From: a virus
Virus record (IMG/VR): IMGVR_UViG_3300042892_003562
Span: 1 to 64,000 of that record
DNA length: 64,000 bases
Strand: one strand, 5' to 3'
Shown here: positions 8,907 to 39,300 of the stretch, piece by piece
How positions within the stretch are numbered: the first letter of the stretch is position 1
Layout: each line of letters begins with the position of its first letter
The notes under the pieces: generated by a model
The model's input: only the letters and a program-made list of their open reading frames with translations
What the model was told of the DNA's origin: nothing
The model's database searches: none
Made by a program: the position numbers and the translations under genes

Positions 8907-9190
8907 TGTCTGAAACATACGCAGTTAAAGGAGCCGTCAAGTTTGTCGGCGAAATGGAAACCCTCGGAGCCAAAGGCTTCACCAAGCGCGAGCTCATCGT
9001 CACCACCTCCGACGACAAATACCCGCAGGACCTCAAGATCGAGTTTGTCAAAGACAACTGCTCGAAGCTTGACGACATCAGCGAGGGCGACGAAGTCACG
9101 GTGAGCGTCAACCTCCGTGGCAGCGAATACAACGGCAAGTATTACGTCAGCCTGACCGGCTGGAAGATCGAGAAAGGCGAACCCTTCTAA
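8906..9190 (+). CDS. DUF3127-like OB-fold single-stranded DNA-binding protein
   Basis: GFTKRELIV...KYPQDLKIEF.KD...GDEVTVSVNLRGSEYNGKYYVSLTGWKIE. Confidence 0.75.
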   Translation: MSETYAVKGAVKFVGEMETLGAKGFTKRELIVTTSDDKYPQDLKIEFVKDNCSKLDDISEGDEVTVSVNLRGSEYNGKYYVSLTGWKIEKGEPF

Positions 9191-9193
9191 ATT

Positions 9194-9661
9194 ATGACAC
9201 TCCATCAAGTCAGCACGGCCAAGGATGGAGAAAGCTTCACCGCCATCGGCGTGGTGGTTGTCCACAAGCAGTTCAACCCCAAGATCTCGAAGAACGGCAA
9301 GCTGTTTTCCAGCGTCATCCTCAAGAGCGCGGGCACCGAGGTGTTCATGACCGTGTGGGATGACGCGGCGAAGGTCAAACTGCCGCTCAACACCGACATC
9401 ACCCTCCGTGGCAAGTTCACCAAAAACCAATACAACGGCGCGGCCAGCCTCAAGTGCGAGGAACTGGTCGTGCCGGAAGGGGCGACGGAGTGGAAGCCGG
9501 AGGAAATCCAAGGCGCTGCGGAAACCCCGAAGATGAAGGACTGCATCGACGCCGGGATCAGGGCGGCGGACTACATGGTCCGCAAGGAACGCCCAGACCT
9601 CGCGTCAGCCGCTTTCACATTCGCAGCCAACGCGTTCATTCAAGGAATCCGCATGGAATGA
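9194..9661 (+). CDS. OB-fold nucleic-acid-binding protein
   Basis: SKNGKLFSSVILK...MTVWD...LRGKFTKNQYNG beta pattern typical of OB folds. Confidence 0.5.
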   Translation: MTLHQVSTAKDGESFTAIGVVVVHKQFNPKISKNGKLFSSVILKSAGTEVFMTVWDDAAKVKLPLNTDITLRGKFTKNQYNGAASLKCEELVVPEGATEWKPEEIQGAAETPKMKDCIDAGIRAADYMVRKERPDLASAAFTFAANAFIQGIRME

Positions 9662-10300
9662 TTCTCCGCCCCCGGCGTTAACCGGTTGGGGGACAGATCC
9701 GGAGAAACACGGTTCGGGGTCTGGACCCGTATGCCAGAGCATTTGACGGCCATTAGCGCAAGAGACCGTTCGTGCAGATCACACCAGCACGTTAAAAAAG
9801 AGAAGAGTGTGACGGGACCAACCTGACGAGCAGGTGGCGTGGTCGAGAAGACGCAGGTGCAGCGCATGGCATCACCGGACACTGTCACCGGACTAAAAGT
9901 CGGAAGGTTGGCTTAGAAGCAGCCATGGGGAATCAGCACCCCTTTTCCTCTAAGGAGTGGGATACCGGGTATCACCTCCCGCGTTTGAGCTACCTGTAAG
10001 CGATGCGGGAAGGGTGAACGAGATGCCGGAGACCCTTTGGCGTAACAGCACACCGACACCATCTTTGAGCATGAGAAGCGCCTAGGCGTTAAGCGTAGAA
10101 AGCCGCCTCGCGAACGGCCATGCTCACCCACTCTCCGGCGCGTGTGCGCAGATGAAGCCAACATACTCCACTCTGAGAAATCAGGGGGCGTGAGGTAATG
10201 GGGTTGATTCAAATGTCGGGTTCAGTCCCGAGCGCGTTCGGACCACGTATCCGTGTCTGTATGACGGAAGGCGACTGGGCAACCTGCCAAAACGGGGGCC
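9662..10300 (+). ncRNA. multi-domain ncRNA cluster with a 23S rRNA H43/H44 mimic (9899-10057) and a tRNA-like domain (10134-10245)
   Basis: 640-nt gap without a credible CDS; consecutive closed stems separated by short AC-rich linkers; GGTTGGCTTAGAAGCAGCCAT and GCGTAACAGC match 23S GAC loops. Confidence 0.75.
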
Positions 10301-10323
10301 TCACTTTAGCCTGACTAAAACCA

Positions 10324-10587
10324 ATGAACACCCGCACCATCTACCTCATCTACGTCCGTCCCACAGGGTCGGAAACATGGACCCAGCACATGAAAGAATC
10401 GGGCGTCCCGTGGCGCTCCAGCAAGCCGTCAACCGCCGACGAATACGCCGTCACCCTTGCCAACAGCAGCAAGTATTGCACCAAGGTGGTGGCAGTGAAG
10501 CTGCCGAAAGACCCAGACGACATCGACCATCCGAAATACGCAGTGCTCTCGGACGGAGACACGCTCTACGTCGCCAACCCGTTCTAG
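10324..10587 (+). CDS. hypothetical protein
   Basis: ORF 4 nt after motif 10305-10319. Confidence 0.6.
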   Translation: MNTRTIYLIYVRPTGSETWTQHMKESGVPWRSSKPSTADEYAVTLANSSKYCTKVVAVKLPKDPDDIDHPKYAVLSDGDTLYVANPF

Positions 10588-10753
10588 GCCATGACCTTCC
10601 TCGTCGATCCTGAATATGGCAATCACAACGGTGACAACCTCGTCTATTGCGAAGACGACGAATACGACGAGAACGCCTGCTTCAACTGGGTGAACCACCC
10701 GGTGAGACAACTCTACGACAATCCCAAAACCCAATTCCATCCATCCAACCCCT

Positions 10754-11035
10754 ATGAAGAAGAACCGAACCCCGAGCACCCTTCCGAAGATCCCCTGTGG
10801 AGACCAACTGCGCGAGGCGTGGCTGGAAGCCGTCGAACTGCACGCCATCGTAGCCAAGCTCCTTGGTGACTTGGACAGTGCGGTGACGCTTGCGAACGAC
10901 GAAAAGCCTGACGCGAAGGTGGAGGCCAAGGAGGCCAAGGAAGCCATTCACGACCTGACCGTCAAGGCTCTGGCCATCCGCGACATGATCACCGTGTGGC
11001 AAGCGTGGGCCTCGGAAAGCTCCGACATCGACTGA
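10754..11035 (+). CDS. hypothetical protein
   Basis: 93-aa helical ORF with phage-like codon usage. Confidence 0.5.
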   Translation: MKKNRTPSTLPKIPCGDQLREAWLEAVELHAIVAKLLGDLDSAVTLANDEKPDAKVEAKEAKEAIHDLTVKALAIRDMITVWQAWASESSDID

Positions 11036-24138: not shown

Positions 24139-24300
24139 ATGAAGAAAGAACTACAGGAAGCGGCCTTCACCCGTGAGATCGAGAGACGCATCGACCAGCT
24201 CGCCACCGAGTTCGACCTGTCCTACTCGTTCGTCGTGGGGGCGCTCAGCCTGATCCTCCACGGGATCAAGCAGGAATACTTCGAGGACGATGAGGACTAG
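24139..24300 (+). CDS. hypothetical protein (53 aa), last gene of the + arm
   Basis: MKKELQEAAFTREIERRIDQLATEFDLSYSFVVGAL...EDDED*; 1 nt after motif 24123-24137; stop shares CTAG with the giant ORF stop. Confidence 0.6.
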   Translation: MKKELQEAAFTREIERRIDQLATEFDLSYSFVVGALSLILHGIKQEYFEDDED

Positions 24301-27300
24301 GGCTCGTTCGCCCACACCGCTTCCTGAAGCACCTTCTTGGAGGACTGTCTTCCCTCACGGGTGGAGAATAGAATTTCCTGTGCGAGATAGAGCGAGATGT
24401 CGAAGGCGCTAACCTCGCCCGTCTCGTTCGCGTCGTAAGCCAAATTCATTCCGGCAACCAAGTCGTATAGCACCCCGGTCGGAGCGGTGAGCTGCATTGC
24501 CGTCTTGAGTCCGCTGCTCTCCATCTCCCACACGTTTACCGCGTCCTTGTCCCACTTGTTCTCCGCCGATTCCAGTCCGGTGAGCTTGGCCGTGGCCTCC
24601 TGCACCACACTGTTGGTGATGCTGTTCTTGAAGGCGCTTGCCACCGGGAACAACCCGAGCACCGCGCCAGCCACCGGAGCCACCGGCAATACCTCGCTCA
24701 ACATCGAGCTGGCCAACCCGGCGTAAGCCGAAGCCGCCGCCGCGTCCGGGTCCTTCCAGTCTTGGAAGAACTGTCCGGGTTTGCCGATGGTCATCGCCTT
24801 GATCCCTCCGAGAACCGCGTTGTCCTCTCCTTCCGTATTGAACAGGCTGTCTGCCTTCTCCTGAGCCTTGGCCATCGCCTCGTCCTCGTCGTCTCCGCCA
24901 AGCATGTAGCCGACCGACAACAGGATTGGAACGAGGTTTCGGATCTTCAGAGCGTGGAACAACGAGTTTTGCACCATCGTCCCGACAAGGTTCTCCACCG
25001 CGTTCTGGTGGGCACGCTTTCCGCCGTCGGTCATTTGTCCGCCAATGTCCTCACCCGCTTCGTTGAGCGTTCCTATCTCGTGACGTTCGGCCTGCCATAA
25101 CGTGGGGGCCATAGCACTCATGTTACTGGCGGTGGACGCCTGATGGTTCGAAAACCGGACAATCGAGCGCATCAACGCGTTCCATGTCGGAGAGCTGGTC
25201 TTGTTCTGGAAGAAGAACGACTTCTTCGCCTTGTCCGAAACCCCCATGTGGTCATTAAGCTTTGTTTGAGCGGCTTCCACCGCTTCCTGCGGGATGTCGA
25301 AACGTCCCTTGTTCTCCGCCTTGATCATCTCTGTGATGGAGCTTGGCACCTCCCCGTCAATCAGACCCCTTGACTTCATCCATTGGAGCTCGGCCATCAA
25401 CTCGGTGAGGAAGATGGCGCGTGACAACCAGCGTTCCGGCTTGGCGATGGTCAAATCCAAAGCCTTTTCCTGCCACTCCTGAGTGACCTTCGCCGCCTTG
25501 CCGGAATACTTCTTCACATTACCCACACCGTGACGGGTCTGGTTGCGCAGATTGGTCTTCACTTGGTCCATTCCGTCCGCACCACGGAAACTCGACCACG
25601 GAGCAACCCGCAGCATAAACTCCTTGGCGTCGTGGTTGTAGTCGCCGGGCTCGTTCTTGTCGAACGACTTGGAAGTGACGATCTGGCCCATCGCCTCGAA
25701 CATCATCCCCGCCTCGTTCCATTTCCCTGAAAGCAGCTTTTTCGCGCCGTAACCCAGAAGCGAAGGAGCCGACTGGTTCCACCATTGTTGGAACGAAGCC
25801 AGCGCCTTGAAGATATACATCGACGACAGGAACTGAATGCTTTCGGAAAACGCCGTGTCGGTCACCCCGTGCTGCATGTCGTTGGCGATTTCATTGTCGA
25901 ACTCGGAAGCGATGCCCGCCAGCGCCACCCGTTGCAAACGCTTGTCCGCATTCTGCTCGTCCTCCCCAAGAATCAGTGAATTGACGATCTCGGCTTGGTT
26001 TGGACCCGCCTGCTGGACGCTTCCGACAATGTTCCGCAACGAACTGTAGACTGGCGTGACGTTCAACCGGTAGAGCGTGTCGTCAAGCATTCCCTCAATC
26101 GCGGAAATCCCGTTCAAACTCACAGGACGGAACACCAACGTCTTCTTGTTCTTGTCACGCTTCTCGGTGCGTCCCGGACCACCCAGCAATGACATCTCTT
26201 GGAACCCGACCTCATGCAAAGGATCGGCCTTGTAAGGCGTCACTTCCAGACTGAGACGTTCCGCAGACGGATCGGTGGCGTAAGCATACCGCAATGGGAC
26301 AGTCGAGATCAAACGGGCTTGGCCATGCAGTCTTCCCGCAAGGAACGCCTCGGACGGATTAATGTCCTCAATCTCTTTCTGGTCGTGACCCATCGCCATC
26401 ATCATGATTTCAGCCGCGTCGGTCATGCCCTTGAACTTGTCACCGATGTAGTCGGCGTAGTCCTTGGCGGCATCCATCACTCCTGACTCTTCCGACTTCG
26501 CGTAAAGCCTCTCGATGGCCTCGTTGATCTGCTGCACCGCATAGGCCTCCTTGTCACCTTTCGGGACAAACGGAGAGTCAACGATGTCCTCAATGATGGA
26601 GTAGAGCTCCTTCACCATGTTCTCGTCGCGAATGACGTTGATGTGGTCGTCGTTGAAAAACCCTTTCACACCACCCGCCGCCTTTTTCAAGGCCCCGTCC
26701 GTCACCTTGCTGTGACTTGCGAGCTGGGCGTCGCGATACAAGGACAAGTCCTTCACCCCTTTCTTCAGGTCGTTCGACCACATCGAGAAGTTGGCGGCGA
26801 CCGAGTAGGTCCTGACTCTCTTCAATCCTTCCAAACTGGCGATCATGTAAGGAATCGACTGCATCAAGGAGTCGTTCCCAAGCGCCAGATGCTTCTTGGC
26901 CATCACCTTCTTCTCAGCTTCCAGCTGGGAAATCCAGCCGTTGCGGCCCGAGTTCATGTCGAAACCGTTCTGGAGGATACCGTGGAGACGCATCGCCTCA
27001 AGCTGGGCGAGGTAGTTTTTCCGGTAACGAATCCGGACGCGAGAGTCGTGGTGGTTCAAATACTTCATCGCCGTCAGTTCGGCGGTGCTCAGGTTGGTGG
27101 ACAACCCGGTCAACAGCTGTTGCAAAGCGGCCTCCCCCTCGATCCTCGCGCTCATCCGCTCGAACAATTCGAACAGGCGGACCTGCTGGGCGGTGTTGTC
27201 GCTTTGAACAATGCTGTCGTCACCGAGCATCTCAAGGAACTTTGCGATGTCCTCCTTGAGTCCGCGTTGGTTGGTCTCCGTGCTGGGCGAGAGCTTGTCG

Positions 27301-30300
27301 TAACCAATGACCAGCGCCTCCACCATGTGGGACAACTGACTCAACGCGTTCTTCATGTCAACATGCTCAACGTCCACCTTCTTGTCCGCCGCCAGCTTGA
27401 AACCAGCCACCTTGTCACCCGGACGGGCGTTGGCTCGGGCGATCAAAAGCTCCGCGTGACGACCGGAATACTCCTTGGCCACCTGTTCACGGGTGGTTCC
27501 AGAAGGGGTGAACCTCGCTCCACCAAACGCATGGGTCCATGTCCCGTCTTTCCATTCACGGGTGAAGCCCATCCGGTTCTTGGTCTGGGGTTGGGGCGTT
27601 GGTTCGTCGGTGTCGGGAAGAGAGTTGAGGACGACGTCGCGCATCGTGATCTTCTTGCCTTTGCGCTTGGCGGTCTTCTCCGCAGGGGTGAGCTCGCTGT
27701 TGGAATGGTAGCGGTTCTTCAGGTCCTGCTCGGCGTTGATCTGACCCAGCATGATCCACTCACCGTTGTTGATGAGATGGCCGATGATGTCCTTGCGGGC
27801 GGCGAAGTTGGACGGCACCTTGTATTTGGAGACTCGGCGGGCTGCGTTTAGCCGGGCTAAATCAGCCTGAAGACTCTTGATCTTGTTCCGGTTTCCGGCA
27901 ATCGGATGCTTGAACAACTCCTTGTCGGCGAGCTTGGTCTCAATGGCTTTGATCTGGTTGTTGATAACCTCAAGATTACCTCTCAGACCACTCCGGAACT
28001 TCGGATCAACCGACAGCTTCACCAGACGGGTCTTTTCGTTCTGAAGCGAAACCATCTTCTCAAGCATTGGAGCGGCACGCTCTGCCTCGGTCTGACGCTG
28101 GGCCAGCTCGTCCCTCACCTTCATCGCTTCGACCACGTTGCTCGTGGAATAGATGCTGTGGACTCCGGGCTCCGCCAGCAAGGCGATGGCGTCAGGACTC
28201 AGTTGGGAACCCGATCCGGTCACTCCCCCGAAGTTGTTCTTGAACTCGGTCAGACGCGCCTCGGCGATCCTCTCCTGCAACGTGAGCGTGTCGCTCACCT
28301 GACGGATAATCGCCGCTGGGTTATAGTCGTTGAAGTAAGCTTGGTCGCCCTTCACCGCACGGTAGAGCTCGTCGGCATGACGGGCGTATTGACCGAGCGA
28401 CTTGGTCAGAGCCTCTTTCATAATGTAGAACTCGTGGTCCTTCTCTCCTTCCGGCGTGGCGTTCCACTTGGCTGCAAGCTGGGCAAGACCCGCCTCAATC
28501 CCCATCTTGTTCTCGAAGTTGGGGGTGGTTCCGGCAGGGTAGAGGACGATGGTGGCGTTCACCGATTCGGTGCGTCCGGTCGGTCCTTTCTCACCGGAGA
28601 TGAAGACGTGGCGACCCGCCGACCACGGGGTGACCGAGCTGTGGGCGAGACGCTGGAAGAACCCTCCCTTCAATGGATTGCGGTCGATACGGACCAGACC
28701 AGCCAACTCCTTGTTTGCCAGTTCGACATTCTGGCGAGCGACACGCAACTTGTTCATTTCCGACGCATCCAAAACCTTGCCACGCTCCGCGATCTCCATC
28801 TTGAGACTTGACGAAAGCTGCATCTCGTTGAGCAGGGCTCTGGTGTTCTTCTGGCGGTTGGGACGGACCTTGGAATCGTTTTCCAATGAGTCGAACTTCT
28901 CGTTCAATTCCCGAACCAACGTCTTTGCCGCAGCTTCCTTGCCGAACGTGCTGATCTCGCCGATGGTTTGATTGAGCAGCTTCTGGTAACCGCTGCGGTT
29001 GGGCGCGAGCTTGGCCGGAAGGTTCGAACGGTAGATCGCGTCAGCCTCCGACAGCACGTGCTGGAGAATCATCTCACGTTGAGCCTCATCAATAAGGTTG
29101 ATTGACTGCGAGTTGAACAAGTCAGGCGTCGCCGCCATCACGGCTTCAATCCGGTCGACCTCCGATTGGTTGAACGCAATCCGGTCTTCGATAAACGCCT
29201 TCCGGTCCTTCATCGCCTGAAGCTCGCGGCGGGCCTCTGCCTCATGGCCTTCCAGCATTGGAAACACATTTTTCATCTCGGCGTAGACTTCGGGCGTCAA
29301 GGCCATGTCGGCGAAGGCGCGTGGGTAGATGACAAGCTTGTCCTGCCCCTTGCCGTTGTCGACCCAAGCTTGGGTTCCTTGGTCAATGGAACGCTGGGCT
29401 TCCTTGCGGATCACCGACTCAACACCGGAGACACGGGAAAGAAGACCGCCGGAGAACGATTTGAACCGGTTGCTCTCGTGGTGAAGCGTGGACGCGGTGC
29501 GTCCGTTGATCCGTCCTTCCATCATGTTGTGCCATGCGGTGACAACAGGGACTCCCTCACGGCCCTGAAGCCTGCTCTCCTGTGTCCGGCGAAGCCCCTT
29601 GGGGGTGTTCTGTCTGACGACGGGACGCGCCTGCGGACTGGTGGACTCGCTGAGAAGTTGTGTTCCCGGAGTTGGCCGTCTCGAAGCCATCCCCTCCATC
29701 TGGGTTCTGGCGTCAAACCGCATCGACTCATGCTCCTTGGCAAGACCGATCAGGTCGACAAAGAGGTTGATCATCATCGCGTCGCTCGCTGGCAGGCTTT
29801 CTCCGTTCCATGCCGGGTCCTCAAACCCACCACGTCCACGGTGAAACTCCTCCAACACCGCCTCCATCCGCTTGTCCATCACCCCATACTCAGAGATGTC
29901 GTGGTTCTTGTTGCGGAGATACTGGAGGATGCTGGAAACCGACGGCTCGACGGAACGAAGCAACTCCTTGTCCTCGTTCGACGGCTCGATGTCCAACTCG
30001 ACTTCCTGACGTTCGGTGGAGTCGACGCGGCTGGCGAGGAACTTCTCAAGCTCCGACTCCATCCAGCTCTTCTCCACATCGTCAGCCGCCTGCTCTTCGG
30101 CCAGATCCGAATCCTCGTCGGTTTGAGGCGTGGCCTTGGTTTCCATCGCGTTGTCGAAGGCGTATGGGTCCTGTTCCTCCACCGCGTCCTCGCCCATCTG
30201 CTTGTTTGCCAGAAGGATTTCATTGAGGGTGGCGTTGGACAAGTCGCTTGATTTCAATAGGTTGTCTCCGAAAAGGAAGCGGTCCAGAAGCTTCTTCATG

Positions 30301-33300
30301 TTCGGATTGGTCATGGCCTGAGCGACCAGCATCGCGTCGGTGATGATGTTCTGCTGTCCTTTAAGACCCGAGAGATCAGTCTTCCCGTCGAAAGAAGCTG
30401 ACTGAAGTGTATCGGTCGACTCGACAAATCCTTTCTCACCCATCCGGTCAAACAAGTCATCCCTATCAAAAGCACGGACGGTCGAAAGGGTCCCGTTTTT
30501 CATCAATCCTTCTGAACGAGACAGAGCTCCAAGATTCTCCATCGTGGCGAAGTGCTCACGGAGGAGACCAGACAGGATTTCAACTTCCGTTTCCTTGGCC
30601 GCTTCGTCCATCGCCGCCAGTTTTTCGGGGTTCTGTTCAAGCAGCGACATCGAATAGTCACCGAGCATTTTGCTCACTGCATCCGTATTGCCCTTGTGAG
30701 CCCTCATGAAGCGCTCGATGTGGGTTATGGGACTGAGTGCCACACGAATCCTTTCAGCGGCTTCCTGAAGCACGGGGGCGACCAATGCAGCCGACTCTGA
30801 CTGTGTCCCCCACCACGCAAGCGCCTGAGACACCATCGCCTCGTTGTCGGCGGAGTTGGAACCCTCGGCGGCGTAAAGCACCGGAGGGTTGCCGTCGACA
30901 CCGGGAAGGAACCGTGAACCAAAGTAGGCTTGGTTCTTGTCGATTTCGCTCTTGCTCGCCCGGTAGACCAAGACACCCGGAATGTTCTGTGTGAGAAGAT
31001 TGACGGCCTTGTTGGCGGAGACGAAGCCCGTTTCATTGTATTGGGCGAAGACGTTGCCCCGATGGAGGTTGATGGCCTTGTTGCCACGGCTCTCCGACTG
31101 GAGCATGAGCGCGATCTTGTTCGACTCCTCCTGTGAGGCGAAGCCATTGCCCTTGCGCGGAGCGAACAAATCACCCATCCCGAGCTCTGCCATCTTGGAC
31201 GCTGTCGCGGCGAAACTCGTCTTGATTGATTCGGAGTCCTTGGCGAAAACAGCCCCCTGCGCGGACTCGTTGTCGTTCGTCGCGGACAACGCATATCCCA
31301 CCACCGTCCGGATGGCCGTCAACAACTCCTTGTTCGAATCGTTGCCATTGCCGTTCGCCTCCACCACGCGGGCTTGGTCGATGATCTCCATCTCGCTCTT
31401 GGCCTTGAACTCGATCAACGACTCCATCAATTCAAACGGGTTGATCTCAGTGGCAACGCTTTTCCGTGTGTCCGATGGCACAACCCCCATGCGGGTGACC
31501 GTCCGTGTTTTGGTGACGGTGCGCGTGGTGGCTGCGCCGGGAGCGTTCTGGGCGTTGATCCGCGCAGTTTCCTTCTCCCACTTTGCCAGCGCCTCTTGAT
31601 GGATGGCGTCTCCGAACATATCGAAACTACCCTGAACCGGCTTGATTGGAAGAACCTCTTTCGGAATCACCTCATCATCCTCATAGCTTTCCTCCTGCTG
31701 GATTTCCTCGACTCCACGGCTGGAAGCGTAGTTGTGATACATTTCGACCAACGGAGACAGTTCGCTTTCCTTGGTGACGCCGAATAAGCCACGAATAGCC
31801 TTCCGGATGAAAGCATCATAACCTCTCGGATCGTCCTCCAGTGCGACAAGATCGCGGAGGAACTGACGGGGAGCGTCGGCAGCCGACTCGTTCGAAGAAA
31901 GAAGTCCGCCATCCAAGTTTAGCCCGACTAAAAGGGCGGCTTCAGTCAGACGCTTATTCTGAAGCTGGCGCTGAAGGTCGGTGGTCACCTGTGCTCTCTG
32001 TGCTTTTGACCGCCTTGAGTCCTCGCTGGCGCGTCCATCACGGGTCTCCTGCACCGTGCTGCCCTGCGTCCCCATCTGGGAAGCGAGAGGGAAGTTGCCG
32101 GAGTTGTCCTTGTCGGCGATGGCGTAGGCGATGGCCTCGCTCGGGTCCATGTCGACGTGGATCTGCTTGCGGACCACGAGCATCTCGCCGTTGGAATCGA
32201 GCTGGACCTTTGGTTGTCTCACTGGAACCAAGCGTCGCGTCTCAACCCCGTTGACGGCTTCCGTTCTGTAAGTGACTGCCACCGGCATCCCGGCTTGGTA
32301 ATCTGGATGAGACGACGAAACCAGCTCGGTGAACTCCTGACCGTTCTTCCCAACCGACCTCTTCTCAAACATCTCCTCAAACACCACGTCCCCCTTGGAG
32401 TCCCGTTCAAACACAGGGACGTCAGACCAAACCCAGTTCGGACCGCCCACCACCAACTCACCGTCCTCTTTCGAGAACGAGATACGGCGGAACTTCTCGT
32501 AAAGGTCGATGCCGAAAGTGGCGCTGATCGCTGAAGTCCTGCTCTTGGCGAAGTAGTTGATGTTCCACAATCCGTTGTGAAGCGTCGGGTAGTCGATGTG
32601 GCTCTTGCGTGCCTGCTCGAAGAAGTCGGAGTAGGCCACCATTCCGGCGTCACGGCTCGTCTGGGTGACCTCGCGGGTGACGTTCGGACGACTGCGGACA
32701 AACCGCTTCACCGCACCCCGCGCCCAACGGGCCTCGTTGCGAAGTGACCGGACAGACGCATCCAGCACCTGATGGCTCTGAGAGTTGTAAATCGCGCTGA
32801 TGGATTCAGCGAGCGCCTTGCCAGACAAGCCGGAGCTGACGACGTCGAAGTGAAGCTTGAGGAACCGTGCTTCCTGCTCGTTGATCAGTTGGAGGGCCTC
32901 TGTCGCACGCTGATGAATCCGTGACGACAGTCGTCCGGCCAAAGTCTGCATTCCTCCGATATTCCCAAGGATCTTCTTGGGGTCGGTGGACTCCTGAAGC
33001 TTGGTCGCCCAGTTGCGGAGCTTCTGGAAATAATCCGCAAAGGTCTCTTCATCATACTCCGTGGTTGAGGAAATGGTAGCTTGATTGACTCGGGCGGTCT
33101 CCCCGGAATCGTGTTTGATCATCTCCGGAATACCGGCGCTGTCAAAAAACGCCTGACGCGTCATGCTCTTCAAGCGGGTCTTGCCGTTGAGGAAGTCAAT
33201 GAAGTATTTCCCATAAGGGATGTTCGGAAGGATGGACTCCAGCTCCTCGTAGGTGGTGGCGTTGAACTCGTCGTTCTCGATGGGTGGAGTGTTGAATCCA

Positions 33301-36300
33301 AAGCTTCCCTCGTAGCGTTGAGCCAGCTCCTCGTTGACTCCGATCTCGGTCAACATCTTTTGCCACTGCATCTGGTAATTCGTCCCGATTGCGGCCATGT
33401 TGCTGGCGACGTGGCGATTGAGGAGGACGTCTTTGGCCGTGGCATTGCGCTCCAGCGTGAACACCTTGCTCTTGTCATAGGGCTTCTCGACCATCGACAT
33501 GCCGTCGGAGGAAGGAACCATCTCCGGAATGAACGGGACGCCGGGGCGGTCGACATGGTAACGGAGACGGTCCGCTCCGTCCTTGTTCAACACTTGGAAG
33601 ATCGCGGGATAGTAGTTGACCCCGTAGGATGATTCGGAATCGGAAGTCGGCATGATGTCGTCAAGACCCTGTTCCGGGTCAAAGAACAACGGGCGACCGT
33701 CCATCTTCGCCTTCACGTAGGCCTCCATCTCCTCGGCGTCTCTGGCGTCGAACTTGGCGTAGACCAAGCTCTGGAACCGAAGACCGAAGTTGGTGCTGTC
33801 CAAGGACTCGGAACCAAGGACCAAGTCCACCACCCGGCGGTTGGTCTCGTTGTATTGGTCGAGCGCCTGCATGTAGGCGTTGAACTTGACCATCTCCTCC
33901 TCGGCGAAAGGCTTGTTGATCGCCGCCTCCGCCCGCAACCGGCGGGCCTTGAGTAGGGCCTGACTGCCGTCCGAACGGCTTTCACCCGACAAATACATTT
34001 CGATTTCCTTGGCCGTGTTTAGCTTGGCTAAAGACTCCTGCTGCTCATCCGTGAGGTTGGCGCGTCCAATCCGCTCTTGTTGTTCCTCGGTCATCACCGC
34101 CAGCTTGAACGCGGCGAGATCCTCCTGAAGATTCAGGCGCTTGGTGTTTTCGAGGTTGGTTGGCTTTGTGTTTGGGAAGAGGATGGATTGGATTGGAAGC
34201 AAGGCGTTGCTGCCAAGCAACAGGCTCTTCCCTTCCAATAACGCGTCGTCGTCCATTGCCATGTCGGCGGCGTGACGGCGCAAGCCGACGAGCCACGCTT
34301 CAGCCGTGGTGCGGGGAGACTCAACCAAAGGACTCATTCCGGATAATACGTCCAGCCTGTGAACCAAGCGGGCATCATCCATTGCAACCTCGTATCCCAA
34401 AGCATTGGCCGCCTTCGTCGCCTTGATGCTGTCTGAAACCTTGCCCAGATCAATATTCTCCAACGCCTGAAGCATGTCCACGTTGGCGTTGTGGAGGGTG
34501 ATGCGGTCGGCGTTAAACATTGCGGCAAGCTCGTCCTCCTTCTGCTTGATGAAGCGCGAGCCGTTGTCCATCAACGGGGCCGACGCCACGAGCTGGGACC
34601 ACACCTTGAGCTTGTCCGGTTCCGAGCCCTCCTCCAACACCGACAGGAAGTTGGGGGTGTTGGCCCGAGCCCATTCCAGCTGCTGCCACGCGTAACCCAA
34701 GTCCCGTTGAACCAAGGACAACGCACCCTCCTCGTTCAAATCACCCAGAGCCTTGTCCAGATCGTTAAGGTCGGTGCCGGGGTAGTAGCGACCGATCATC
34801 CCGCGAACGTCCAAACCGTCCTTGTCTTCAGACGTCCGGAGACGGATGGCTCCCTGCTTGTAGTCCAACACGATCATGTCGTCCAAAGACATCCCGAGCT
34901 TCCCGGCAATGTCACGGATCTCCACCATCACCTCGTTGTGCTTCATCGCCACCGAGCCGATGGCCTTCTTGGTCATCTCCCTCGACCGCTGGAATCGCTC
35001 CACCGCCTCCTCCAGCCCCTTCTCCTTGATCTGGTCGACGTCGCCGCGCAGGTTGGTCTTCACGTAGGCCGTCTCCTGCTGGCGGATCATCCGGTTCAGC
35101 GAGGTTGGAAGCTGGCCCATCATGTAACGGAGGTGGGCCATCCGCTTGATCTTCTGCATATAGCGCTTGAGAAGCTCCACCACGGTCTTCCACGGGTTGC
35201 TGGTCTCCTTGTTCGAGAAGTCCTCGTTGAGGGCGATGAGCAGGCGCTTGGAGTCGGTGGTTTGTTGTTCGGTGCTGACGCCGCTGGTGAGGATCTGGTT
35301 GAGAGCGCGGAGGGTTTCCGAGGCGACCAAATACTTGTCCGCGTCGTCGAAGTCCTCGATCTTCTTGCCCTTCACCCGTTGGGCGGCAACCCGTTGGAAC
35401 ACGTCGTTGACGAAGCGTTGCCTGACGTTGCCGCCCTTGTCCAAGTCTTCGGACAGCTCCACGAAGTCGGAGAACGAATTGATGATCTCCTCGTCGGTGA
35501 ATTCACTCATCGCCACGAAGTGGGTTTGCTCCTCGTCCACGAACGCCGCGATCTGACGGGCGACTTCGTTGGAGACGAAGGAATCGTAAAGCTCTCCTCG
35601 GGTGGCGTCGTAGCCCTTGAAGATGCTGCGGAGGTTGGCGACGAACGCGTCCTTGTCCAAGTTGATCTTGAGTTGTGACGTTACCGTTTCCTTGGCTTTC
35701 TGTGTTCTTGTTGGCGCAACATATCCATCCACTGGAACTCTTCTTCCGCTCAGCTGAACGTAGTGGGCAACAAGCGTCCTGACCTTCTCTTTTACCTGTG
35801 TGCCATCAGGATTCTTTTTGGCGACACGTATCCCGGTTTCCGGATCAGCATCTTCATACACTGTCCGACTTACCACCTTTTTGATCATGTCGATCAACAG
35901 ATCACCGTTCGCGTCACGCTTGAGGTTGTCATCGAGCTGGGCTTCGTCAAAAGACGTCCCGTTCGATGTCTCGCGGGTGACGTTGAAGAAAAACCCCTTC
36001 TCCATTTTGGCGTCCCAGTTGATCGCCGCCGGGTTGCTGCCGGGAGCCACCACCTGAAGCACGTTCTCGATCATCTTGCGGAAAGCCGCAGGATCAATCG
36101 GTCCCTTCCCAAGAAGGTCCTTCAGCATCGGCTCGATGGCCTTGCCAGCTTCCGTGAGGCGGTTGCGGTTCCAGTTGGAGTTGAGCTTGCCGAGAAGGAC
36201 CGTGTCGTTCTTCCGCATCGCGTCGCCAATCACCTTCACGTCGATCTGGCGGAAGTAGTAGACGCCGTCGGCTTCTTCAGTGAGGACAAGAACGTGGTCA

Positions 36301-39300
36301 GGATCGCCTGCAATCTCAACCACCGCGTTCACCCCGATGGGGAGCGTCTTGCCCTTGGCAGGCTTGTAGTAAATCTGGCTCTTGTCGTCCTTCGACCACA
36401 CCCCGCCAAACTCGTCCTCCACGTCCATTGTTGACAAGTCGACGTAGAACTTCGGCGTGGACGGATCGAGGAACAACGGGTCCTCCTCACCGGGCTTGTC
36501 GTTGGCCGTGTCTGGCTGGGCGTCAAGGACGTTGGTTGGCTTCTCTTTGAACTTGCGAACCGCCTTGCGGACGTCGGCTGCATTCTTGATCTCGGACTCG
36601 GAGATCAACAGGACACGCTGGTTCGCGGGAATTCCGTACTCCTCGCGGGCGGACGTCTCGTCATCCCCGACAACCACCGCCACGCCATCGTCCCACAGCT
36701 CCTGAAGCGCCTCGTCCACCATCGCCGCCTTCTGGTGAGGCTTGCGTCCAAGGACGTCCCTGACGGCGGCTGGAGCTTCCGGAGTTGTTTCTTCGGAAGC
36801 TCCTTCGGTCAGCACATCCCCTTCGTTTTCGGCTTGGGCTTCGTCGTCGGTTTCGGTTTGGTCTTCATCGGGTGGTGTTGGTTTCTTGGTTTCTGCCGCC
36901 GGAGTGGCGGAGGGAGCTTCTTTAGCCGGGCTAAAATCGTCCAACTTTTCAGCTGGCCCAAAAATACCTTCGTAATACTGATTGGCTTGATCCAAAGGAT
37001 CGGAGCTCATCTCAATCGACTCCTCAAAAGCGTTTTCTGGATTATCAAGAGGCACATGAATGATGATAACTTCATCTACTTCGATCCCACTGACCTTGAG
37101 CGCTTCCACGTAGGCCTTCATTTGAACCTTGTGAGACATTGCCTTTGAAGCACGCTTCCGGAAAGGAGCCTTCTTCTCCGTATAGCCATTGTTGTAATTC
37201 TGATAAGAGGCTTCTTCGCTGGCGGTCTTGGTATCCACCAGAATCCACTTGCCGTTGGCCTTCGGGATCAGACCATCCACCATCCCTGCGTATTTTTTTG
37301 TCGCAAACGCACCTTCAGTGACAACTGGCCCGGACGCTCTCTTTTTCAAACCTTTGATAATCTCCTTAACCTTGTCACCAAGTCCGGTGGGCTCGCCCTT
37401 AAATTCTTTCTCTACCTCTGCGTGGAAGGCTGTCCCTTCTTCAGCAGCGAGAGCTCCCGCCGCAGTTGACTTCCGTTGGAAGTGGGGATGCTTCTTCATC
37501 AAGGTGGTGACGGACGGCTTCACGTCCCCGTCCGCCTCGTAAATATGGTTCTCCTCATCGAAGGAAATTCTCTCAGGCTTGAACGCTGAGTCGAAGTCTT
37601 CGTTGCCCGTAGGGGTTCTTTTGACTAGCCCTTTGACAGGTGCCAAAGGCTCTGGGCCTGATGTCGGGACAACTTTGCTAGGACCTGAAGCTTCGCTATC
37701 GACGACTCTTTCGGGGCTTGGAGGATCTCCCACACCTTCTTTGCCGGGAGTGGGGACTTTTGGATTAGCTCCTGAATCTGTTCTGCTTTGGATCGGTCTT
37801 GCATAGTTGGTGGTTTGAGAAGAATCGAAATTGCCGAAGCTCTTGAGCATCCCCTTGCGGATTTTCGCCTCGGAACCGAGAGCCTTCATCGGGCTGATCG
37901 GGTCAGCCGCCTTGAGTTGTGCCGTCGCCTCGGATGGAGACAACACCTTGGTCTCGCCCTTGGAGTTGGTCAGCACCGCGCCCATCGACGTCTCTCCCTT
38001 GACCGCGACGCTCTTCATCGTGAACGTCTCTCCGCCAACCGTGAAGTTGTGCGTGAGGTCGCGCTTCGGATCGCGCATCTCCGGGTTCCACTCCATGTCG
38101 TTTCCGTCCTTGTCCTTCGGTGCCGGACCCAAATGGTCGGTCATTTCCTGAGCATGGACGGTCTTGGGGTCAGGAGGGGTGTTCCTTGCCTTCTCCTGCG
38201 CCTTCTGGGCGCGTTCAACGGGAGTCGTGGCACTTGGCTCCAGACGGCGGGCAAAGCCGCTCACGGCGTGCTGTGAGAGCACCTTGGCCCGCTTCTCCAC
38301 CGGGATGGATTCATCGGCCATGTAGTTGGCCACCGAAACCACCGGAGCTCCGGACGCCGCCTTGATCCCCAGCATCTCCGCAGACGCATCACTGTTGTTT
38401 TCCTTGATGTCCTTCCAGATCACCTCGGCAAACTCCTTGATCTCACGGACGCGGGTGTCCCGGTTCTTCTTGCGGAAGGCTCCAGCCGTCTCAACGACCA
38501 TCCCTCCACTCTCACCCAACCCGCCACCGAACGCACCCATCACGCCCGCCGCCATATACTCACTGAACTTGTCACCGATGTTGTCCCAAACCTCGCCCTT
38601 CCACGTCTTGGAATCGTCGAGCACGGCGAGGAACACGTCGGACAGCGCGGTGTCGAAGGTTTCCTCCATGAACTCGGCACCCATTCCAACCGCAGGGCCG
38701 TAGCCTTTCAGACCGTTGGCGCGGGCGGCGCGGTTGATGGTCTCGCGCAGCGCGGGTGCCAGCGCCTTGCGTAGCTCGGAACCTTCCGCCGCCAATCCCT
38801 CAAGGGTCTCGATAGCCGCCTTCTGAGCGTCTTGAGAAACAGCGCTCTTCATCGCCTTGTTGAACTTGAGATGCTTGAAAATTGACCCGCTGAGCCCGCC
38901 CTCGACACCGCTCATGCCTTTTTCAAGACCCGGAGCAATCCGGTTGAACGCGGCGGTCGCGATGAACGCGGCGGCTCCGTCTGCCAATCCCTTCATTCCC
39001 GCCTGATGATACGCCTCCTCGGCGTCACCGGTCTTGTCAAAAACCTGATTGTAGGTGGAGCCGAAGGACATCCCTCCGGCCTGCAACGCGCCGATGTAGG
39101 CGGAAGGGTCCTTGATCGCCTTGATACCGAAATTCTTCAGCGTGTTCGGAGCAAGCTCGGTCATCGCCTGCTTCATCGCCTTCTCGGAAATCGTGATCTG
39201 CCTGCCCATCGCTGTGGCGGCTCCTGTGCCCTGCAACGCGCCAACTCCCTTGAGTCCGAGACCGCCGCCGATGACACCACCTACAATTCCTCCAACCATC

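Follow-up and report, generated by a model that had tools for sequence, protein, structure and literature searches.

A phage RNA family that reproduces the GTPase-associated centre of 23S rRNA, and its cassette-like member in the genome of a freshwater phage

The stretch of DNA analysed here, called the window throughout, comprises 64,000 nt (positions 1 to 64,000) of the IMG/VR virus record IMGVR_UViG_3300042892_003562, a complete phage genome of 73,925 bp with direct terminal repeats. A non-coding element of 159 nt, present in a single copy at positions 9899-10057 on the plus strand, mimics in sequence and structure the GTPase-associated centre (GAC) of 23S rRNA and is a member of a phage RNA family. 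The GAC is among the most conserved and best-studied RNA domains; it binds the ribosomal protein uL11 and translation factors and is the target of thiopeptides. The element lies within a 662-nt gap free of open reading frames (ORFs), bordered upstream by a 155-aa gene of unknown function (9194-9661) and downstream by a small ORF (10324-10587); a minus-strand ORF of 99 aa (9913-10212) overlaps it. Because the genes upstream encode an exonuclease, an Erf-type annealing protein and SSB, a recombination block that ends with the 155-aa gene at 9661, and the genes downstream comprise small ORFs of unknown function, an HNH endonuclease and a primase/helicase (PHROGs/Pfam), the element is located in the replication/recombination arm of the genome. 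The phage is distant from cultured phages, with a primase at most 31% identical to any phage record and no PHROG match for most of its structural proteins, and its sequence is found again in DNA metagenomes that many studies obtained from freshwater, lake and estuary samples. Scans of the window and of the remainder of the genome found no tRNA gene and excluded a tRNA or tmRNA identity for the element.

The element reads GTCGG-AAGGTTGGCTTAGAAGCAGCCAT (9899-9926), insert 1 (9927-9946), CCTCTAAGGAGT (9947-9958), insert 2 (9959-10039) and GCGTAACAGCACA-CCGAC (10040-10057), the letters and layout that an initial annotation, made from the sequence alone, had given. That annotation had compared the element with E. 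coli 23S nucleotides 1051-1108, and the sequence that it gave for them proved identical to the annotated 23S rRNA of Salmonella LT2 (L126:1090-1147). Once the inserts at 9927-9946 and 9959-10039 are removed, the 58-nt core aligns with the Salmonella GAC without a gap, as claimed, with identity at 44 of the 58 positions. The assignments A9915 = A1067, A10044 = A1095, T9908/A9956 = U1060/A1088, C9950/G9954 = 1082/1086 and G9906/C9948 = 1058/1080 hold, and the differences from Salmonella keep the pairing throughout: the closing helix is GUCGG/CCGAC, 1058-1080 is G-C, 1082-1086 is C-G and 1090-1101 is U-A. The differences in the closing helix and at 1058-1080 and 1082-1086 had rightly been called compensatory. 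Top of helix 42 (H42), H43 and H44 are thus in register with the 1051-1108 numbering, and all residues of the tertiary core (U1060-A1088, the triple partners G1071 and C1072, and 1082-1086) are present and may be expected to form their three-dimensional contacts here as well. The window element also carries canonical residues throughout the tip of the 1067 loop. It is not an uninterrupted 58-nt domain, as 20 nt are inserted after 1078 and 81 nt (linker included) after 1090. Its parts are as follows.

9899-9903, plus strand: 5′ strand of the closing helix, GUCGG, equivalent to 23S 1051-1055 at the top of H42; pairs with 10053-10057.
9905-9926, plus strand: 5′ strand of H43, the 1067 loop and the return strand, equivalent to 1057-1078 (U1060 = 9908, A1067 = 9915, G1071/C1072 = 9919/9920, A1077 = 9925).
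9927-9946, plus strand: insert 1, a hairpin off H43 between 1078 and 1079, with GGGG 9927-9930 pairing with CCCC 9939-9942, the loop AAUCAGCA and then UUUU (centroid fold).
9947-9958, plus strand: 3′ strand of H43 (1079-1081), the 1082-1086 turn (C9950-G9954) and G1087, A1088, G1089 and U1090.
9959-10035, plus strand: insert 2, a long irregular hairpin off H44 between 1090 and 1091 (predicted folds).
Pairs within insert 2, plus strand (predicted folds): GGG 9959-9961 with CCC 10033-10035; CCGG 9965-9968 with CCGG 10026-10029; UCACCUCCCGC 9972-9982 with GCGGGAAGGGUGA 10005-10017; apex 9983-10004.
10036-10039, plus strand: UUUG linker from the insert-2 helix to G1091 (family conservation).
10040-10052, plus strand: top of H44 and the 1095 loop, G1091-A1103 (A1095 = 10044; A1101 pairs with U1090 at 9958).
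10053-10057, plus strand: 3′ strand of the closing helix, CCGAC, equivalent to 1104-1108; pairs with 9899-9903.

Both inserts fold on themselves in the predictions, insert 1 through GGGG/CCCC and insert 2 as a long hairpin, as the initial annotation had stated, and blastn against 23S gave only chance-level short matches for either. The folding energy of the single sequence is not significant on its own (z = -1.36). The domain of bacterial 23S rRNA (E. coli 1051-1108, the uL11/thiostrepton domain) is matched in its helices, its 1067 and 1095 loops, U1060/A1088, G1071, C1072 and 1082-1086; in contrast to it, the phage element stands alone, with its own 5-bp closing helix and two extra helices, and has U1090-A1101 where rRNA of the E. 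coli type has A1090-U1101. It is not genuine contiguous 23S rRNA. Within 9000-11000 the only exact match to 23S spans 20 nt (9907-9926) and the flanks are unrelated to 23S, and the Rfam large subunit rRNA (LSU) model found no match in the whole 73.9-kb record, in agreement with the claim that the flanks do not resemble rRNA. A local match to the LSU model restricted to the mimicked helices had also been expected; this came true for the family member in Pseudomonas phage Astolliot, which was matched at model positions 1081-1156 only (H42-H44; 20.8 bits, E 2.7e-4), whereas in the window element insert 1 interrupts H43 and therefore no match appeared at E up to 10.

The wider Rfam 15 collection gave no match at gathering score in the 64-kb window and nothing relevant at E up to 10 in 9300-10700, with ribosomal-protein leaders, GOLLD, ROOL, tRNA-like and other models all leaving the window unmatched. 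A blastn search of the entire 662-nt gap against cultured-phage records returned no match, and in the literature the literal core motif led only to papers on rRNA and L11. The family is unnamed, having no Rfam 15 entry and no published description of such a phage RNA that our searches found, in accordance with the initial annotation, which knew of no name for it.

A gapped motif scan of IMG/VR returned seven contigs, and scans with a 15-mer of the 1067 loop and, separately, with a 16-mer of the 1095 loop gave at least 120 matches each, most of them non-rRNA and of a common design. At least 116 distinct full elements of 103-422 nt were collected, of one architecture: a closing helix that covaries, H43 and H44 together with the tertiary pair 1082-1086, and a variable branch that leaves between 1090 and 1091. 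Metagenomes contributed 30 further loci of the subtype with a branch in H43, found with a second pattern after a stricter first one had given none. When 80 bacterial-assembly loci that carry the 16-nt 3′ motif were tested, real elements were present in just 6, the other 74 being chance matches, and the family is therefore essentially phage-borne. Among cultured phages it is carried, unannotated, for example by the Pseudomonas phages Astolliot, Milchi and pf16, Aeromonas phage 4_4572, Xanthomonas phage XacN1 and the jumbo group of Cronobacter GAP32, Pectobacterium CBB, Serratia BF and Erwinia and Yersinia phages.

A co-oriented tRNA gene lies within 1 kb at 74 of 114 family loci (65%), and the Astolliot element ends 12 nt before a tRNA-Met gene. 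In this neighbourhood the elements, and in its gain and loss as a small cassette the window element, resemble the tRNA clusters and other translation RNAs (tRNA, tmRNA) of phages; the window element is, however, neither a tRNA nor a tmRNA and departs from the typical family trait, its genome being free of tRNA genes. Clustering of neighbouring genes revealed no conserved neighbouring protein, as even the largest cluster is limited to 5 of about 115 loci. A uL11 gene (PF00298) was found neither in this phage nor in any of 50 carrier records, 26 of which are at least 90% complete, and ribosomal-protein genes were likewise absent from the vicinity of the element and from the 50 records.

Selection on the fold is evident from alignment A2, made with MAFFT from 32 sequences of at most 165 nt, the window element included. 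At the 16 GAC pairs 97.3% of the cells are paired, and 10 of the 16 pairs have changed on both sides. The covariation score is 0.545 compared with 0.147 in shuffles, none of 500 of which reached it, and all measures collapse when partners are slid, so that the collection of homologues suggested in the initial annotation yielded strong covariation on exactly the GAC pairs. The covariance model R1, built from A2, scores the window element, itself one of the 32 seed sequences, at 91.3 bits (E 1e-21) and the Astolliot member, which is outside the seed, at 87.9 bits. Genuine Salmonella 23S rRNA is matched by R1 at 1051-1108 only (55.1 bits, E 2e-12), and because a model of phage relatives singles out this domain of 23S, the resemblance of the window element to the GAC is far beyond chance. 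Trait by trait, the window element has what characterizes the family: the closing helix, the GAC core, U1090-A1101, a 1090/1091 branch with a paired base, and UUUG.

All five pairs of the closing helix covary, each with at least three Watson-Crick pair types and the three outer ones with all four, among members for which the parser required at least four of the five pairs. In 66 distinct cores found by the 5′ motif, 1058-1080 is U-A in 28, G-C in 24, A-U in 10 and C-G in 4, and 1057-1081 is A-U in 57 and C-G in 9; the parser required 1057-1059 to pair with 1079-1081 in members with insert 1 and took these positions as fixed, not fitted, in members without it. The tertiary pair 1082-1086, on which no parser constraint lay, occurs as U-A, C-G and A-U, and the pairs of 1062-1064 with 1074-1076 covary among members found by the 3′ motif, 1063-1075 and 1064-1074 doing so in a few of them. 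In H44, G1091-C1100 and C1092-G1099 are invariant and U1090-A1101 is present in 31 of the 32 sequences of A2. Across the 66 cores 1094 is U in 65, 1096 is A or G and 1097 is free; G1093, A1095 and A1098 were preset by the search pattern, and their constancy carries no information.

The 39 distinct 5′ halves from loci found by the 3′ motif only are free of the search pattern in this half, and variants are over-represented among them as loci with the exact 15-mer were excluded. U1060, G1059, G1063, G1071, C1072, C1075, A1077, C1079, A1084, A1085, G1087, A1088 and G1089 are nevertheless invariant in all 39. The tip of the 1067 loop varies, with A1067 in 26 (G in 10), G1068 in 24 (A in 15) and A1070 in 27 (G in 12); the fold-defining residues are therefore fixed in the family and the factor- and thiostrepton-facing tip is relaxed. 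To our knowledge, this tip is invariant in bacterial rRNA, which sets the phage family apart from the domain that it mimics. Moreover, U1090-A1101, the branch site at 1090/1091 and the UUUG linker are common to the family and have no counterpart in the real 23S rRNAs compared (Salmonella, and the Paenibacillus type in L128), which argues for one origin followed by spread among phages and not for repeated capture from hosts. Two minimal members, L092:4293-4413 and L025:3713-3772, are without the branch, L092 having the rRNA-type U1101 and C at 1095; they may represent either the ancestral form or separate captures.

The two inserts of the window element fall at 1078/1079 and 1090/1091, which are sites at which members of the family differ in length. 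The first is occupied in 14 of 72 parsed members (about 19%), and more than 25 further examples came from metagenomes; the stems covary and the loops are mostly UUGRGA-like, a motif of which the window loop AAUCAGCA is a variant. Among the unpaired bases of the internal loop in H43, 1078 is the only one that varies freely. The second branch measures 41-350 nt, its lengths being evenly distributed modulo 3 (23/24/24). Of 71 members, 65 have a fully paired helix at the base of this branch, for which more than 25 sequence combinations occur, and the linker reads UUUG in 60 and UUUA in 6. The distal sequence of insert 2 in the window is shared only with the related locus L004 and in part with L104. 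Two long members (L168:8378-8798 and L112:8580-8987) carry in the branch a 14-mer resembling the sarcin-ricin loop, AGUACGGGAGGAAC and AGUACGAAAGGAGC, a rate of 2 in 24.8 kb of elements compared with 3 more in about 2 Mb of surrounding DNA.

How the element behaves among close relatives was seen at four syntenic loci (L202 to L205), which were found through homologues of the upstream 155-aa protein and compared by blastn and in alignment A5; L204 lies on the same contig as L004. At L202, L203 and L205 the homology to the window ends at 9713 and restarts at 10060-10064, and model R1 detects no GAC mimic there. They lack the following segment.

9714-10059, plus strand: segment missing from L202, L203 and L205, consisting of 185 nt unique to this phage and the GAC mimic.

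At L204 the element sits between the hairpin GGCGGTCCTCTCAAAACCGCC and the block TTTTGAGCATG, which abut directly at L202 and L203; the insertion thus amounts to the RNA bounded by its closing helix and no more than 7 nt to either side of it. Sequence conserved between L204 (L004) and the window likewise begins sharply, at 9896-9899. Because the boundaries of presence and absence coincide with the closing helix, the limits of the insertion delimit the functional unit, which was gained or lost among close relatives. A mobile accessory unit with such limits, in no need of a tRNA cluster, is what the window adds to the picture of the family. The initial annotation had taken the element for a free-standing GAC mimic under selection and not for a piece of rRNA in decay, a reading that is sustained by the covariation in the family, the model matches confined to the GAC, the non-rRNA flanks and the presence or absence of a unit bounded by the closing helix.

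The site 3′ of the 155-aa gene (window 9714-10059) is a hot spot of cassette exchange. It is filled by 28 nt at L202:1909-1938 and L203:3518-3547, by an unrelated 120 nt at L205:3518-3638 and by about 760 nt at L204:3465-4227, the last apparently with an ORF (219 aa on the L004 map) in addition to the mimic. Directly 3′ of the mimic lies a conserved non-coding block (10064-10160 and 10203-10245) that is found in all five related phages, mimic present or absent. It comprises GAGCAUG...CAUGCUC around two small hairpins, then a GCGC-GUGU-GCGC hairpin and a GUCGGG...CCCGAGCGCG segment, shows a few compensatory changes, has no Rfam match and may be a separate RNA or a leader. The possibility that the mimic is part of this block was rejected, as relatives without the mimic keep the block.

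We tentatively propose, at somewhat less than even confidence, that 9899-10057 is the complete gene for a stand-alone structured RNA that serves as an off-ribosome decoy of the GAC, with host uL11 as its likeliest ligand. The conserved core would refold as the 58-nt uL11-binding domain (top of H42, H43 and H44) including the residues of the tertiary core, and two lineage-specific helices would branch off at 1078/1079 and 1090/1091. We infer that the RNA is transcribed and acts in trans, off the ribosome, by offering a second GAC surface to a partner that recognizes the GAC. If this partner is uL11, its soaking up would leave ribosomes without uL11, and RelA-dependent stringent signalling, for example, would be blunted. 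The contacts listed for uL11 (PMC1802607) are mostly constant in the family, except for the covarying pairs 1057-1081, 1058-1080 and 1082-1086 and for position 1078. This, together with the constant tertiary core, the relaxed factor-facing tip and the lack of a carrier uL11, makes uL11 the leading candidate; with no uL11 gene in the carrier phages, any uL11 bound would be that of the host. The co-oriented tRNA genes close to 74 of the 114 loci speak for a link with translation, and the activities that the initial annotation had suggested, uL11 binding or a decoy role towards GTPases, RelA or toxins, are plausible. The proposed logic, a stable RNA that titrates a binder, is that of sponge and decoy RNAs such as 6S RNA, CsrB and the phage pseudo-ToxI (PMC3475682). 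The likeness ends there, since binding is putative here, no relation in sequence or structure exists, and the imitated object is a ribosomal domain.

Stated as a joint claim, the element would be a portable cassette, spread over phages of many hosts, holding a working replica of the uL11/GTPase docking domain, which rewires or protects host translation off the ribosome either by uL11 stripping or by interception of a GAC toxin, and which in this phage was acquired independently of any tRNA cluster; we put this just short of an even chance. If it is true, uL11 stripping would silence RelA and alter termination, and the family would represent a new class of viral decoys that imitate a part of the ribosome.

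Several points speak against the proposal. The computed results do not separate uL11 from other ligands of the GAC. With a closing helix of only 5 bp and the rest of H42 missing, binding of uL10/L12 is unlikely. Insert 1, at 1078/1079, falls inside the contacts 1075-1083, which are listed for the C-terminal domain of uL11 along with 1058-1060, 1062-1065 and 1088 (PMC1802607), and might hinder canonical uL11 binding in the H43-branch subtype. No sigma-70 promoter or intrinsic terminator was recognized in 9400-10700, a result of little weight. Two RNA-type wastewater runs, labelled 'RNA-Seq cDNA', yielded only rRNA 31-mers over 9894-9926 and a few exact contigs of low depth that are possibly DNA, and two metatranscriptomes did not cover the stretch. 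In the runs X16 and X19, tens of thousands of 31-mers with 2-3 mismatches at 9894-9926 come from real rRNA of other organisms; such a pile-up on the H43 part is a trap for estimates of the family's expression that use short words.

Rather than a binder, the RNA might attract an attacker. It would serve a toxin, defence effector or antibiotic directed at the GAC as a decoy substrate or sponge, and so divert the attack from the host ribosomes on which the phage depends. A toxin for exactly this site exists: Tre23 ADP-ribosylates H44 of 23S rRNA at nucleotides 1095-1098, and EF-G is blocked (PMC8661411). The invariance of the H44 pairs 1091-1100 and 1092-1099 and the near-constant U1094 are consistent with such a role. 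So are the tRNA genes that 65% of the members adjoin, tRNA genes being a known means to replace or shield translation components, and the gain and loss among close relatives, which fits an accessory counter-defence gene. However, literature searches found no anti-phage system aimed at the GAC, Tre23 being an interbacterial toxin; the decoy must out-compete thousands of ribosomes; and the variable A1067 makes a thiopeptide sponge unlikely as the family-wide role. On balance we consider this explanation unlikely.

It is also conceivable, at a lower probability still, that the RNA binds a translational GTPase or another factor that docks at the GAC (EF-G, IF2, RF3, EF-Tu complexes or RelA), sequestering it or holding it near phage messages. 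The mimicked site is indeed the surface at which the factors dock, A1095 is conserved along with the fold, and the two long members with a 14-mer like the sarcin-ricin loop would suit such a function. Yet A1067, G1068 and A1070 vary at the very tip that faces the factors, and the sarcin-ricin-like motif is missing from 114 of 116 elements and does not occur beyond chance in the window.

We regard as similarly improbable that the GAC fold is a mere stable chassis and that the function resides in the variable branch (insert 2) or in the insert-1 loop, which is conserved. The constant presence of a branch at one and the same site, joined by a conserved UUUG linker, and insert-1 loops with a common motif would be in keeping with this idea. 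The branch, however, is hypervariable in sequence and in length (41-350 nt) while the GAC core is conserved, and the minimal members L092 and L025 are branchless.

Ribosomal-protein autoregulatory leaders (for instance the L10 leader and, in the L11 operon, the leader that binds L1) are off-ribosome RNAs that imitate an rRNA protein-binding site, and the element could accordingly be thought a cis-acting one, a stabilizer in the 3′ untranslated region or a leader for downstream genes. It lies on the same strand between the ORF end at 9661 and the ORF start at 10324 and has no recognizable promoter of its own. Such leaders, however, are partial mimics that act in cis 5′ of ribosomal-protein genes in cellular genomes, whereas the phage element is a near-exact mimic of a whole domain, has no ribosomal-protein gene nearby and matches no Rfam leader. 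No upstream or downstream gene is conserved across the family, neither this phage nor the 50 carriers have a ribosomal-protein gene, relatives keep both flanking genes without the element, and most members reside among tRNA genes. A cis-acting role is thus very improbable, and a function as leader, specifically, was rejected for want of a conserved neighbouring gene and of any ribosomal-protein or uL11 gene.

Almost certainly wrong is the notion that the element is a piece of host 23S rRNA, whether captured or chimeric, or the 99-aa minus-strand ORF at 9913-10212, and has no function as RNA: a 20-nt exact match to 23S, the overlapping ORF and true rRNA in the record of phage Pd_22F could be cited for it, but non-rRNA flanks, strong covariation, traits (U1090-A1101, the UUUG linker, the branch site) that are common to phages of very different hosts and absent from the compared 23S, and insert lengths without a reading-frame periodicity of 3 nt refute it as far as sequence analysis goes. 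A coding role was rejected as well, the branch lengths being even over modulo 3. The match in the Paenibacillus phage record Pd_22F (MZ092003.1) was rejected as a family member, as this record holds genuine 23S rRNA, about 2.6 kb at L128:1276-3892 that are 72% identical to Salmonella 23S in an almost unannotated stretch; host DNA that entered the record and a packaged fragment are the two possible sources.

That a faithful, free-standing copy of the GAC is under selection in hundreds of phages suggests that some partner recognizing the GAC is worth capturing or diverting during infection. Knowing the ligand would reveal a new counter-defence or a new level at which phages control translation in the host. 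The family also provides a natural set of compact, independently folding GAC variants for structural and antibiotic work. The window member shows that H43 can accommodate a further, conserved branch within the footprint published for uL11; with this branch the uL11 hypothesis has a test at hand.

Two further features of the genome were noted. An uninterrupted ORF of 5486 aa (24297-40757, minus strand), neither half of which has a Pfam match, takes up a quarter of the window. A 15-bp palindrome, TTTAG-N5-CTAAA, occurs at 23 sites in the window where 0.01 would be expected, mostly in intergenic positions just 5′ of start codons, and is probably a phage-specific regulatory or promoter-type signal. 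One copy, at 10305-10319, separates the non-coding region from the ORF at 10324 and is kept in the relatives.

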